A stretch of DNA of 64,000 nt, taken from Tricharina praecox (lineage: Eukaryota). The DNA is taken from assembly GCF_024521635.1 (NCBI RefSeq), contig NW_026250403.1, positions 2,418,001-2,482,000 on the forward strand, given 5' to 3'. Of this stretch, positions 50,867-64,000 are shown in pieces. A model generated the notes under the pieces. It saw nothing but the letters and a program-made list of their open reading frames with translations. It was not told where the DNA came from and searched no databases. A program made the position numbers and the translations under genes. Within the stretch, counting starts at the first letter, position 1. The number at the start of each line of letters is the position of its first letter.

Positions 50867-51490
50867 ATGGCACACAACATAAGAGCAGCCTCCCGACCCG
50901 CTTCGATCCCCACCGGCCACGCACCACCAACACCACCACAATCACCGCAATCAGCACCCTCACAACCTCCCAATCCTCCCAACCCTCCCTCCAAAATGCC
51001 AACAGAAACGCTAAACACTTCAACCAACCTCTCAACGCAAGCGCACATCACCTCACTCTTCTCATCACTGCAAGACCCGATCTCATCGAGCATACTACCG
51101 ATCAGTACGCGGCGACTGCGCGCCAAAATGCGAGGCTACTCGCCGCACTGCGCCGACCCCAGCAGCAGCAGCGCCGTGAGCTCGCCGACGGGATCGACAT
51201 CGAGCACCGGCAGCGCGGCCACCGCCGCCTCCTCCGCCTCCGCCGCCTCCCACTCCTCCCACTCATTCTCGTCGTCCGCGGGCACAGTACGTGTGCCGAT
51301 CTATACCAATTGGGTCTTTGTCACCAGCGCGGAGGTCCTAGCGCGCGCGGGCGAGGGCGAGGAGGAGGCAGAGCCGCCGAATGAGGCCGCCGGTGGAGGC
51401 ACAGCTGGCAAGAGCGGCGGCGGGTGGACGAAAAGGCAGTACCGCATCGAGAGCGAAAAGCTGAGGGGGAAGGAGTGGGTGTTTCAATGA
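50867..51490 (+). CDS. Small Ser-rich hypothetical protein (start 50867 or 50996)
   Basis: 207-aa ORF with coding-like composition, CAAAATG at 50996, and an ordered C-terminus RVPIYTNWVFVT...WTKRQYRIESEKLRGKEWVFQ. Confidence 0.55.
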   Translation: MAHNIRAASRPASIPTGHAPPTPPQSPQSAPSQPPNPPNPPSKMPTETLNTSTNLSTQAHITSLFSSLQDPISSSILPISTRRLRAKMRGYSPHCADPSSSSAVSSPTGSTSSTGSAATAASSASAASHSSHSFSSSAGTVRVPIYTNWVFVTSAEVLARAGEGEEEAEPPNEAAGGGTAGKSGGGWTKRQYRIESEKLRGKEWVFQ

Positions 51491-53177: not shown

Positions 53178-53718
53178 TTACTGCTGCTGATTCTGTGTCT
53201 GTGCGAACCCCCCCTCAGCGTCCTTCGTCGCTCTCGCCTCCCAGCCCTTCCCCCTGCGCCTATCGCCGAGGCCAAAGCCGGTACCGGACGCTCTGATCGC
53301 CGTCAAGAGCTCCTTCCCGCCGTCCTCATCGCGCACCACGCTCTCCGCGCGCGCAAGGTAGTCTTCGTGCTCCTTCCCCGTCCATCGCCCCACGTCCTCG
53401 ATCACGACCGCTTCGATGTGCGAGATATGCAGCGGCGAGGCGATCTTGACCGCGCTGGCGGCGGTGGCCGACGCGAACAGCGCGTGCACCGTCGGCGTGA
53501 AGGTTGATGTTGCCGAGGGGAACTGCGGGGTCGTTAGTGGGGGGGTGGGACGGGGAGGGGAGGGGGATGCTACGCACGCGTAGAGCTTTGAAGGCCGTTA
53601 CTTGGCCGAATTTTTGCAGCGCTTTGAGCACCTGGCGGGACTCGGTGACGTTTTTGGGGGGCGGCGAGAGGCGGAGGGTCACTGCAAGCGTGGAGAGTTG
53701 GGTGATCGTGCGTGACAT
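53178..53718 (-). CDS. Hypothetical protein with degenerate RRM-like N-terminus, possibly mitochondrial (intron 53577-53523)
   Basis: LRLSPPPKNVTESRQVLKALQKFGQVTAFKALR is joined in frame by a GTGCGT...CTAAC...CAG intron. Confidence 0.7.
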
Positions 53719-53956
53719 TGGGGGCAAGTTGTTGAAACGGAACACGCGTTACAGACCGCGGTTGAGTACCTGTACTACCTTTGCATGCCGACGCACCCCT
53801 AACCCTTCAGTCACCCCGAGTCACTGCTGTCACCGCCTTTTCTGCACTCAACGCCTGACTCCAAACGCCTGACTCCATTATCCAATCACTCCTCTATCAA
53901 AAGGCTGGCAGCAAAGGTTGGCAGCAGAAAACGAAAAACAAACCCCCATTTCAACG

Positions 53957-56900
53957 CTAAACCGCCTGTTGGTCCGCGTCCTCCCACCATTCCATCCCAT
54001 TGACCTCAGTCCACCTCGTTCCCCACGACTGTTGCAAAAGACTAACCCTCGCATCTCTCCCTCGCCTACCGCCGTTACTGAACACTTCTGCCGATCTCGC
54101 CGTTGTGTTTCTCCTAAGTGCAAAAACCAATGCCACCGTCATGCCACAAGTCAACGCCGTGTAGACAGCTAACCCGGTACGTACCAAACCGGCGTCCTCC
54201 AAACTAGCGCTAACCCCAACCGCCATTGCGGCAAACAAAAATGCAATCCCGTGGAAAATTGCCAGACCGGAGCTGAGACAGGGATGCGACGTTGTAAAGC
54301 TCTCGTCATATCGGTGGAGGCTGGCCGGTAGTTGTGTTCGGTGCTGATGTGTCGTCGAGTTCGATAGCGACCCAGACCCCGGTGTAAGAGCGGGTTCTGG
54401 AAGATCGGATATGTCGAAATTGTCCATCATCATGTTGTAACACTCTGCGATGACCATGGCACCGGAAAATGAGACAACCGCTGTAAAGAATACAGGGGCC
54501 ATGAAGTGAACCGGGGGCCCCGCGGCCGAAATGGTTAAGGCGATACTCGCCATTGGTAGCAGAATAGCACCGGTCCAGAGTACGGCTCGGAAAGGATGTT
54601 GTCCAACATCTTTATGACCGTAATTATTGTTGTGTATCGCTACACTCGAACGATGTCGGAAATTGGAACGATACAGCTTGCAGAGTTGAGTTGGAATAAC
54701 AAGTAGGGCTCCCGCGGCAAGCGCAAAAACCGCAAGGCCAATGTCAGTAGTGGCGAATCCGTAGGTTGTGGTAATAAGCGACGACAGGAGCTAAAGCGAG
54801 CTGTCAGACATTATTCAACCCGAGAACGCGGACACGAACCATCATAACCAGCATGAGATAGCCAAAGACCCATCCAAAGTACACTGCGATGATCAAGAAG
54901 CCCTTTTGATGGAGCATCTTCCAAGTCAATACCATGCCAGCCCAGACCTCCTCCCACCAGTATTCCGGCGAAGTTCCAAACATGACCAGCTTGAGTTCTC
55001 CTCTTTCTGTAGCTCCCTTAGCGGCGGACCGATGTTCTGGTTTGTGGGTCATTTTCCACGGTGGTCGAACTTCCGGCGCTACAACGACCAAGACCAGAAC
55101 GAAGCCGGCAAGAATCATGACTGTCCAGAATCCCCAAGCAGGATCCGTGGCGTCAACTGTTATCTTTCCGAATAGATACCCAACAGCTGGAGATGCGACA
55201 AATAGCCAAGTGAAGATACCAATCCACGCCCCCGTCCTCACACCGGCATCGCCCCCGGGAATATTGTTATACACGTTTTGACCTTCTATGGGGACGGGAC
55301 TGTTGTAGACTACGCCGCCGCGACAGCAGGCTCCAGTGTCAGGGCCAAACAAGTCGAGGATCGTCGCCAGGGAATTCATGAACGCAAATCCAAGCACTAT
55401 CCCAGAGAAACTACGAAAGAAAAGCAGGCAGACAACATAGGGTTGCATTGTAAACGAAACGCTTGGTTGGACGGTATGCGGCGGTAGCGATAACGCCTGC
55501 GGAAGCTGCAATGGAAGCATAAACGCAATCGAGAGCAAAAGATAAGGTTTCCGTCCGTGTAGTAAGGGCAGCGGCCAAAAGAACAGAGTAGGAATGAAAA
55601 GGCCGAGAAAGAACATTGAATTGCCCAAGGATGCCACCCGCGGAGTGATCTGTAAGTGCTCCTGTATCCTAGGGAGCTCTGCCTAATAGCTTCCGATAAT
55701 CCATCCGTTTAACCCCACCACCGCACAGGCAACGCTAGCTGTGAATCGTTTGCTCCAGAGATTCCACTCCCATCCGCCCTTGTATCTTCGTGGTGCACAA
55801 ACGACTGCAGCCTCGGCAGGCCTAGGAGGCCCGAATTCGAGTGACATGTCCGGGCGAGGGAGACGGACCAGAATGATCTCGCCATTCTCTCCGACTTCCA
55901 TGCGAAATTGCTGCTCTAGGTTCCCAGGAACCGAAGCTCTAGCGATAGATCCTTCCCGACTGTATCCTTTTATGGCTCTGGTTGAAGCCATCTCGGAAGC
56001 AGAAGTGTTCTGCCGGTTACTATTCCATGCGCTTTCCCGCTCAGACTCCTGCATATCGATAGATTCTTCCCGACTGTAACCTTTGATGGCTCTGGTTGAA
56101 GCCATCTCGGAAGCAGAAGTGTTTTGCCGGTTGCTATTCCATGCTCTTTCCCGCTCAAACTCCTGCATATCGATGAATGGAATAGGAGAGCGATGATGTT
56201 TCTGTCGAGACCGCCCTTTTCCGTTGCGTTCCGACGTTCTCCGACTTGAATGCTCCCAGTTTTCCGAAGACACACCTACTGAGCTTCCAATACTGGCGTC
56301 CTGCTGAATTACTTTGGTCCTTGAACGTTTGGGCTGATCTTCCGTGAGCTCGCTCGAAACATCCTCCGAAACCTCCATTGGCAACCCCGAAACCTGCACC
56401 GGTATCTGTTCCGACATGGACTCTCTCGTCGACTCTCTTGTCGAGTCCTTCATCGAGCCCTTCATCGAGTCGTTCACCGAGTCGCGCATAGACTCCTGTG
56501 CATGCTCCCGCATCTGTTCTGGCTCCGGGCCCGCTCTCTGCTCCGGCATCTTCCCTTCCGGCAAATCAATCTCTTCTTGAACATAGATCGACTCCGGGGC
56601 AGTCACGGCGGGATCTGTGCCCTCGAAGACGCTCAAGAAGCTTTCATGCGTGCTTCCCTTGGCACTCCGTATGCTCCTATCGCGCTGATCCAACGCCGAG
56701 TGGGAGCCTTGGACGGCTCGTCCGGCAATCTCCAGTGCCTGATTCAACATCTCTTCCAGGTCGCTGATGATCCTCGTGAACGATGGCGCGGAATTTGGAG
56801 TACCCAAGTTCTCCGTAGATCCCATCATGCTGCGAGATGAGTGGTGGATGTTGGCTCGGATGAGATCCGCCACGCTTGATTCGGCTTTGGAAAGGTCGGA

Positions 56901-58332
56901 TTGCACGTATGCTTGGTGGAGCGTTAACGGGGAGCGCTTCACAAGGTGTGGGTCCGAGTCATCGTAGGACGATAGGGCTGCAAAGGTGTCTGTCGAATAC
57001 TTACCACTGTACCCAAGGGGGGCATCTTCGGGGTGTTGAACCGAAGGACTTCTCGTAGGAGCTCCCTCATGAGAGGTTGACACTGCTTTAGAACCATATC
57101 GTTGCTCTGTGTATTCATCATAGTCGAATGAACTCGCGTTTCCACCAGAAATGGTTGCCGTTCCGAGTGCAATCTCCTCCTCCGGAGTGGAAGCTCCAGT
57201 GTGCCCAACAATTGATTGGTTTGGTTTGTCTGCGTGTGTAGAATGCTCATACTCGTCGGACCCAAAGTGATCGGAGGTTCCCATAGAAGTTGGTGACGCT
57301 TGTGATACGGTAGGACTGGTAGCAGCAGTGATTCCGATGAGAGGTGGTGGAGTGGCGATGGTGTTTACGGGTGTATCTGCATCCCGTTTTACCGGCGAAC
57401 CAACATGGAGAGGCCGAGCGAAAAGGTCCGGAGAATGTGACGACGATCCACTGTCATACAACACCCTGGTGACCGGATCTCTCGTATTACTGGGAGTTTG
57501 CTGTGTCTTTCCCGTGCCACCGCCGTCCGACGTATCGTGCTCTTCTCCTCCGCCACCTGCTTCCTCTTCATCCTCCGACGACTCGACGAGAGCTTCAACG
57601 GCGCTTACACCTGATGCCGCAGGCGAAGGCGTCATTTTCCCCAGACTTCGGTGCTTATTCCGCATTGGAAACCCGAATGGAAGCTGCGTCTGTCCAATAT
57701 CCGCAGGAATGGACGCATGCGAGAAATGTGGGCGACCAAGGGCGGGGCTGTATTCCCTGACAATCGAACTAGCCACCGTCTTCTGGACAACACTTCCTAC
57801 TCGAATAACTGGCTCGAGGTCCAGCTCCTCCGATGGCTCGTACCTATTGTCGTCATCTCGGGGTAGGAGATCTCCGCTTTCGTCGGACATGGCTGAGGAT
57901 TTTCGCTGGCCGTCAAGGGCTCCCGTGCCCCCGCTGTCCCCAATCCCGTCTCTTCCATCCACGTAGTAGGGTGACGCGGCGCCGGCGAGCCCGTGGGTCC
58001 GTGTCCGCTGATTCTCGTTTGACCGATCTGCACCTCCTCCGTCGCCGTCGTCCTCGCTATTGTCCTCGTAGCCGTTATCGCTTAACGTGATCAGAGCCCG
58101 AACCCGACTGTACAGAGATAGACCGGCGAGCTCTAGGGCTCCTGGGGGTGAACGACTTCCAATCGATGTTTTGGACCGGCGCTGAGAGCTCACCGTTAGA
58201 TAGACTCTCAATCCACGGGAGGGGGGTGCTCCGACAACGTACATGAAGGTCTTCGGTCGTCAATGGTAAAGAAGTCTGGAGTTTTGGAGGAGGAGGAGGG
58301 CGGGGAGGAGCAGATTGGGGCCGTATGTCCAT
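53957..58332 (-). CDS. Large MFS-domain protein (~1421 aa, AMD1-like architecture) with in-frame premature UAG at 55685-55683; exons 58332-58243, 58181-54840, 54790-53957
   Basis: Both introns are canonical and in frame. A long disordered N-terminus is followed by MFS helices (FFWPLPLLHGRKPY, WGFW, APEVR). The frame continues directly across the TAG. Confidence 0.85.
55945..56175 (-). repeat. 114-bp (38-aa) tandem duplication inside the MFS gene
   Basis: IDMQE.ERE.AWNSNRQNTSASEMASTRAIKGYSRE occurs twice; gttgaagccatc at 55981 and 56095. Confidence 0.9.
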
Positions 58333-62958: not shown

Positions 62959-63527
62959 CGAAGAACTAAGGGGCTCGTAATTGTGAAATGAGTTTTACGA
63001 GGAGAGGCGAGTGAGCGGCTGTGATTATGCGTGCGAACGATGGGAAAGTCCCCCGCGCCCCCAACCCCACACAGCCACTATCCAAGCACCCCAGCTTCCA
63101 TCGCAACATCCCCAAAGTCTCGTATGCACATTGTATATACGTATTGCATTTCAATCATATAAACCGTGTACACGAGCCGTATATGCCACATCACATCACA
63201 TCACATCACATCTCTCCTACCAAACAAAAATCAAAATACAACGATGTGTCGATGACGAGACAGAAGAAGTAAGAAGTAGAGATCTACGACATCAGAAAGC
63301 AAGTAAGGTAGGCAAGCAAACGTTTAAACAAAAGACGGGAAAGAAAGAAAAGAAAAAGAAAAAAGACACCCATAACAATTGATCCAAGTTCATAGAAGGC
63401 AATAACAAACTCCACGCCAGTCCGTTCAGTACATGAAGCCAGCAGTAAGCAAGAAGGAAACCAAAAAAGAGAAAACTGAAAAAGAAAAAAAGCGAGAAAC
63501 AAACATCCCAATATCGCATCATCGTAT

Positions 63528-64000
63528 TCACCGATGCTTGTACTTGTCCTCGCGAGCGCGCCTCCTCTCGGGCTCCATCGCATTGCCGACTCCCATCAAC
63601 GTGCGCCCAACAGCCTCACTGACGCCAATGACAGGCCTGATGACCGCCCTGGGAGCGGCTCTTGCGACCGCGGCTGCAACACCTCTCGCATCCCCCCCCT
63701 CCGCCATCTCGGCTGGCAATGTGAGGATCGCGTCTCTAGCCTCTCCGAAGTTACGTCTCAGGGACCTCGAGGCACCGCGCAATCCTAGTACAAAACGTGA
63801 GTAAATCCCCAAGTAATAGATGGGGATGGATGGACAAACCTTGCATCACACTCTCAGGCTGGTCAGCATACAGCGAGACGATACGTTCGCTGTCGGGCTC
63901 GTAGTCGTCATCCCCAACCTCAACCACAGCGTAGTTTTCGCTGCCACCAGAGAGCGCGCCTTCCGCGCTTTGCAACAACGCCTGGGTTCCAACTGCTACC
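63528..64000 (-). CDS. ATG2: Autophagy protein Atg2, C-terminal part (truncated by window edge, one intron ~63838-63785)
   Basis: GTQALLQSAE...SLYADQPESVMQG|LRGA...RAAPRAVIRPVIGVSEAVGRTLMGVGNAMEP..R...EDKYK matches the Atg2 C-terminal domain. Confidence 0.92.

Follow-up and report, generated by a model that had tools for sequence, protein, structure and literature searches.

A conserved in-frame TAG in an AMD1-type transporter gene of Tricharina praecox, a candidate site of sexual-stage A-to-I mRNA editing

The window analyzed here, the whole stretch of 64,000 nucleotides of Tricharina praecox DNA (Pyronemataceae, Pezizomycetes; NCBI taxonomy), carries on its minus strand a gene of 1421 codons that is interrupted by one internal stop. 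The gene model (58332-58243 / 58181-54840 / 54790-53957) contains this TAG at 55685-55683 as codon 863, in the context TAT-TAG-GCA (sense strand ...GGA AGC TAT TAG GCA GAG...), between the residues ...GWIIGSY and AELPRIQ. Six public sequencing runs carry the gene, four of which (X1-X4) were compared with it as Logan contigs; X2 and X3 are RNA, as judged by spliced joints, and their tissue of origin is unspecified. The features of the locus are:

58243-58332, minus strand: coding exon 1, 30 codons, starting with the ATG at 58332-58330; X2 and X3 contigs join 58243 to 58181
58182-58242, minus strand: intron 1, 61 nt, GT..AG; joint 58181>58243 seen once in X2 and once in X3
54840-58181, minus strand: coding exon 2, spanning the disordered N-terminus, the internal TAG and the MFS domain's first half
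55943-56174, minus strand: tandem duplication, 114 nt x 2 (38-aa repeat); TRF, 2.0 copies, 94% matches
54843-55721, minus strand: MFS_1 match (PF07690) on the readthrough translation; E 6.9e-11, profile positions 4-223
55671-55694, minus strand: possible GG.AGCU/AGCU.CC stem with a 9-nt loop holding the TAG; consensus fold -6.1 kcal/mol
55683-55685, minus strand: in-frame TAG, codon 863; the candidate edited adenosine is 55684
54791-54839, minus strand: intron 2, 49 nt, GTTCGT..CTGAC..TAG, phase 0; predicted from sequence, with the joint 54790>54840 in X2 and X3
53957-54790, minus strand: coding exon 3, with the remaining half of the MFS domain; 277 codons, then the terminal TAG (53959-53957)
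54114-54184, minus strand: optional intron inside exon 3, 71 nt, GT..AG; one X2 contig, shorter side 28 letters

The internal TAG ends a stop-to-stop frame of 858 codons and is followed in the same phase by a frame of 292 codons (54804-55682), 281 of which are exonic. Across the six frames of the window, which hold 48 open reading frames of at least 150 codons, this is the only case of two such frames split by one stop. The original prediction, which placed the TAG at codon ~863 in the context UAU-UAG-GCA, at the end of the first TM helix of a ~1421-codon gene, was right on each of these points. It had further taken the 277-aa ORF (53957-54790) as the same-frame continuation of the gene; a same-frame ORF does follow the TAG, but the 277-aa ORF lies in a different frame and is joined through the 49-nt intron.

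When the TAG is read through, the translation from 55901 matches PF07690 over residues 61-353 (E 6.9e-11). The MFS domain in the C-terminal half was matched with E 5.5e-11 and 6.9e-11, above the gathering score. The readthrough match begins 12 residues ahead of the TAG and spans it, and the TAG falls at the end of TM1, the first TM helix of the domain. A Pfam search of the N-terminal 858 aa upstream of the TAG returned no family. The first 862 residues of the model are identical, letter for letter, to the public T. praecox protein BZA05DRAFT_20139 (P0122); the public annotation simply stops the protein at the TAG and truncates the gene to 862 aa. As for the start of the gene, the ATG at 58244, the earliest in frame within the long ORF, was rejected because it overlaps the 5' splice site of the 61-nt intron (58242-58182) that is spliced in X2 and X3; the true start is at 58332.

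Two further features of the locus were observed. The 38-aa repeat lies in the disordered N-terminal region, and the translation of a related metagenome contig (L003, see below) has it in a single copy. Splicing of the optional intron at 54184-54114 shifts the frame and swaps the last TM helix and the tail for 12 residues; its 5' splice site is not kept in L003, and its splicing is probably a minor or cryptic event.

The public runs allowed the TAG to be followed in both DNA and RNA. Three GT-AG introns are removed in these RNA contigs (the 49-nt and 61-nt introns in both X2 and X3, the 71-nt intron in X2 only), and the joints show that the two runs hold transcripts; in X4, from soil, the 49-nt intron is unspliced, which identifies this run as DNA. 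The TAG is read with more than 31 letters on either side in X2 record 10 (55649-55987, RNA) and in X3 record 16 (55535-55958, RNA), the latter being a haplotype with four differences elsewhere. It is also read in X4 record 25 (55665-56001, soil DNA), a haplotype with 15 SNPs, which was not counted as bridging the site since one side measures only 18 letters. The X1 contig ends at 55681, and 55682-55979 is uncovered in that run. The TAG is present in four independent data sets (the assembly, X2, X3 and X4), which excludes the sequencing error that the original prediction had named as one way of explaining it. An intron removing the TAG, the other such explanation, is excluded for the RNA seen, as the spliced contigs of X2 and X3 continue straight over the TAG, with no joint there. 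The gene is transcribed and spliced, and the TAG is genuine and retained in the spliced mRNA. All 120 homologs found align across the site with conserved flanks; the column is occupied in 119 of them and is a gap of one residue in the other.

A second species with the same stop was found via the fast-evolving N-terminal region. Its protein (P0123; 59% identity by BLASTP, 66% by phmmer) also ends in ...GSY, and its DNA is represented by the metagenome contigs L001-L003, which differ from each other at 0-1 bases over 4350 nt. All three contigs carry the same TAG, at the same codon and in the same context. In L003 the downstream frames (292 and 276 aa) are unbroken, with the 49-nt intron at the same place and of the same length. 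An exhaustive phmmer search with the 862-aa product, in a library holding one representative per 50%-identity cluster, gave 13 matches, among which P0123 was the sole other protein ending at the TAG codon. A block of 24 nt that holds the TAG (55671-55694, minus strand) is identical in both TAG-bearing species and ranks third-longest of the 703 identical runs in the coding alignment of the window with L003. The surroundings of the gene are syntenic as well: 53226-53750, 51032-51485 and 63312-64000 align with L003 at 67-82% nucleotide identity, and neighboring genes are shared.

Comparison of the window with L003 shows how the part of the gene behind the TAG has evolved. Over 557 of the 558 downstream codons, dS is 0.81 and dN 0.107, giving an omega of 0.132 (bootstrap 95% CI 0.10-0.18), against an omega of 0.285 upstream of the TAG (778 of 832 codons, gapped codons dropped). 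Exon 3 considered separately shows 80% amino acid identity and an omega of 0.125, and at the nucleotide level the exons are 75-83% identical and the introns 57-67% (intron 1 57%). Past the TAG, neither the T. praecox gene nor its L003 counterpart contains a further stop or a frameshift, and there is one codon-length gap. Among the TAG-carrying T. praecox haplotypes, all three downstream SNPs are synonymous, an outcome with a chance of ~0.014 (405 synonymous versus 1269 nonsynonymous sites), small as the number is; upstream, five SNPs are synonymous and nine nonsynonymous. The apparent pseudogene thus proves to be under strong purifying selection downstream of its stop, and relaxed selection, which the original prediction had named among its possible refutations, is excluded by the omega of 0.13 at a dS of 0.81 and by the lack of a second stop. 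Over the 22 codons that separate the TAG from the next Met, the differences fall 2/1/6 by codon position and 2 of the 22 residues are changed, a pattern which shows that translation continues directly past the stop rather than restarting further on. The low downstream omega, the frame free of further stops and frameshifts and the TAG common to two species together indicate that the downstream half is translated and that the gene is not a pseudogene. That the conserved stop is bypassed, and that the full-length 1421-aa protein is still made, is strongly supported by these substitution patterns.

The protein resembles F. graminearum AMD1, a large MFS-domain membrane protein needed for ascus maturation. 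FGSG_10094 of F. graminearum PH-1, reached via the 90%-identity cluster of a Claviceps homolog and equated with AMD1 in the paper describing that gene (PMC5496914), is 35% identical to the Tricharina protein over 317 aa of the MFS domain (E 4e-57). The homologs range in length from 623 to 1900 aa, and AMD1 has the architecture of the Tricharina protein, with the MFS domain at the C-terminus behind a long stretch free of domains. In a tree of 41 rows, from which ~90 non-Pezizomycete matches were left out, the two TAG sequences are sisters (SH-aLRT 100), next to a Tyr-bearing clade that includes Wilcoxina (83). The Pezizomycetes form a clade (100), and FgAMD1 groups with Claviceps (100) within a Sordariomycete/Leotiomycete group, in agreement with the species tree. 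The end branch of T. praecox measures 0.07 versus a median of 0.1, that is, without rate acceleration. Membership in the AMD1 family, as originally proposed, is thus borne out by the identity over the MFS domain, the shared architecture and the tree, and on these sequence comparisons we identify the gene as the T. praecox ortholog of F. graminearum AMD1.

At the column of the TAG the 120 homologs have Ala in 86 cases, followed by Gly (11), Phe (7), Tyr (4), His (4), Arg (2), Asp (2), Ser (2) and Thr (1), with one gap. The original prediction had proposed a comparison of orthologs for TAG or TGG at this codon; TAG was found in L001-L003, and Trp in none of the 120 homologs. The simplest history would be one TAY-to-TAG change in the common ancestor of both species. 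The Fusarium stop lies elsewhere in the gene: the TAG of FgAMD1 (FGSG_10094 / FGRRES_10094 / PSC04) is at nt 631-633, codon 211, and is reported to be 97.6% edited in perithecia at 8 dpf (PMC5496914). With a stop at codon 211 in the N-terminal part of one protein and at codon 863 in the other, the two stops are of independent origin, as was anticipated for the event that the two sites should differ.

As judged from the two-species comparison, selection demonstrates that the stop is bypassed, not the route by which this happens. The most probable route, to which we assign a probability of roughly 0.6, is A-to-I editing of the UAG to UGG in the sexual stage. On this reading, the UAG that the genome encodes as codon 863, where TM1 ends, arose once from a Tyr codon (TAY) and has been kept since. 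During apothecium development the middle adenosine would be deaminated, turning UAG into UIG, which would be read as Trp; without bypass, translation would stop past TM1 and yield the 862-aa product. The site would then be of the premature-stop-correction kind known from Sordariomycetes. That the bypass works through RNA editing, and that it is confined to the sexual stage, we infer; this is plausible but unproven.

Editing is favored because conserved in-frame TAGs are edited in the AMD1 family and in ~70 other Fusarium genes, because sexual-stage editing with stop-loss sites has been reported in Pyronema confluens, because edited TAGs need not derive from Trp codons, and because the flanks of the site fit Fusarium preferences at five of six positions and the TAG lies within the conserved 24-nt block. 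The matching bases are -2 U, -1 U, +1 G, +2 G and +4 A, when compared with the flanking-base preferences of editing described for F. graminearum (PMC9600606), rules that may not transfer since Pezizomycete editing is said to be of independent origin (PMC10776026). Against editing, none of the 120 homologs has Trp at the TAG column, and the +3 base is C, which is disfavored in Fusarium, and the -1 U and +1 G are uninformative because they are automatic in every TAG. The local fold at the TAG is weak and no better than that of shuffled sequences (z 0.66), covariation is impossible in the consensus fold of the two species since the block is identical, and the TAG, with a probability of being unpaired of 0.95-1.00, is not distinguished from 20 other exon UAG triplets (median 0.92).

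In the RNA contigs of both X2 and X3, position 55684 reads as an unedited A, which neither excludes nor supports editing because contigs drop minority variants and the tissue is unspecified. X2 differs from the window at no position in any listed piece, and the differences of X3, given for the sense strand, are G>A, C>T, T>C and G>A, none of them A>G.

The main rival to editing, itself rather unlikely, is programmed readthrough, in which a near-cognate tRNA would decode the UAG at a low rate, sufficient to supply full-length transporter, and the RNA would stay unchanged. It explains why the TAG is conserved, why the downstream part is under purifying selection and why the first codons past the stop evolve as coding sequence; it is compatible with the A that both X2 and X3 read at 55684, and could use the conserved 24-nt block as its signal. 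A purine following the stop, as is found here, favors termination and counts against readthrough. The known fungal case shares with ours a conserved stop that is bypassed for a longer protein, but differs in stop identity and context: its signal is UGA-CU(A), and UAG in place of UGA is reported to reduce readthrough (PMC4207609), whereas the site here reads UAG-GCA. The extensions described in the same source are short targeting signals (PMC4207609), whereas the one here would be a domain of 558 codons. The window contains no tRNA genes, and therefore no sign of a suppressor tRNA there.

A stage-specific alternative splicing event that excises a short in-frame intron bearing the TAG is very improbable. 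In-frame GT..AG pairs spanning the TAG do exist (by eye, for example, of 72, 69, 60 or 57 nt), and alternative splicing of a stop-containing intron is mentioned for FgBUD14 (PLoS Pathog review). However, no joint is seen at the TAG in X2 or X3, the 5' sites are poor (GTGGTG, GTGGGG), and such an intron would cut out a part of TM1 in which the 120 homologs are collinear and conserved. We give equally little credence to the production of two separate proteins, the 862-aa protein and an MFS part made independently, whether through internal initiation or by way of an internal promoter. The annotated public protein does stop at the TAG, and a product truncated in this way would finish immediately behind a TM helix, but the 22 codons from the TAG to the first Met evolve as coding sequence (2/1/6), and the MFS profile match crosses the stop. 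A separate product would be left without TM1. Least probable of all is a decaying pseudogene or an assembly error, a reading suggested by a nonsense codon inside an otherwise conserved domain and already contradicted by the recurrence of the TAG in four independent data sets and in all three second-species contigs, by an omega of 0.13 at a dS of 0.81, and by the absence of frameshifts, a second stop or rate acceleration.

Editing of the Tricharina TAG would have its closest parallel in FgAMD1. Both genes have a long domain-free N-terminus, a C-terminal MFS domain and a single in-frame TAG in an otherwise intact frame, and both are mis-modeled by gene predictors, through a false intron in Fusarium and through truncation in Tricharina. 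They differ in the position of the stop, which lies far upstream of the MFS domain in Fusarium but at codon 863, in TM1, in Tricharina, and in that Fusarium has Thr at the column of the Tricharina TAG. Furthermore, editing has been shown in Fusarium, whereas the Tricharina site is known from sequence and from unedited RNA contigs. Pezizomycetes are not mentioned in the main text of the AMD1 paper (PMC5496914). More broadly, restorative A-to-I editing has been described in Sordariomycetes for PUK1 and 71 PSC pseudogenes (PMC10776026). The Tricharina gene resembles these in its genomic TAG, its intact and selected downstream frame and the conservation of the stop among species, as well as in a stop that lies one change away from a non-Trp codon (PMC10776026). 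According to the same source, the premature stops of F. graminearum all arose within Sordariomycetes, and two fungal classes evolved mRNA editing independently, the editing of Pezizomycetes having an origin of its own (PMC10776026).

Within the Pezizomycetes the nearest system is that of a related apothecial fungus, Pyronema confluens. The genus Pyronema belongs to the same family as Tricharina (Pyronemataceae). In P. confluens, 2772 sites are reported that were seen only in sexual development, 149 of them stop-loss (PMC5381528); the main text of that paper contains none of the motif or structure words searched for. A literature search found no paper pairing Tricharina with RNA editing and, among main texts as distinct from supplements, none that reports correction of a premature stop in a Pezizomycete.

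Editing-corrected stops are central to the debate on whether fungal editing is adaptive, and have hitherto been traced only within Sordariomycetes. If edited, the Tricharina TAG would be a convergent case, at another codon of a gene already known to need editing and in two Pezizomycete species, and it would offer a ready test site for the Pezizomycete editing machinery. One may go further and picture the AMD1 transporter as having been UAG-gated twice, at codon 211 in Fusarium and at codon 863 in Tricharina, with the Tricharina gate also switching between two proteins, a doubtful proposition that we put forward tentatively. If such a switch were true, the unedited spliced message would give an 862-aa protein with one terminal TM helix, tail-anchored and with a function of its own, and the edited message would give the full transporter. 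Similar genes elsewhere are probably mis-annotated in the same way as this one (862 aa).

The public annotations of FgAMD1 itself conflict, with lengths of 1314, 1346, 1271 and 220+1006 aa within the F. graminearum cluster. These discordant models are consistent with predictors that treat its internal TAG differently. In the N-terminus, the motif F.R..SDLE..L..AL.IA is common to residues 489-516 of the Tricharina protein (P0001) and residues 118-145 of the homolog in Claviceps africana, of the Hypocreales (P0120), in surroundings that are unalignable, and from its sequence the motif may represent a functional element of the AMD1 N-terminus.
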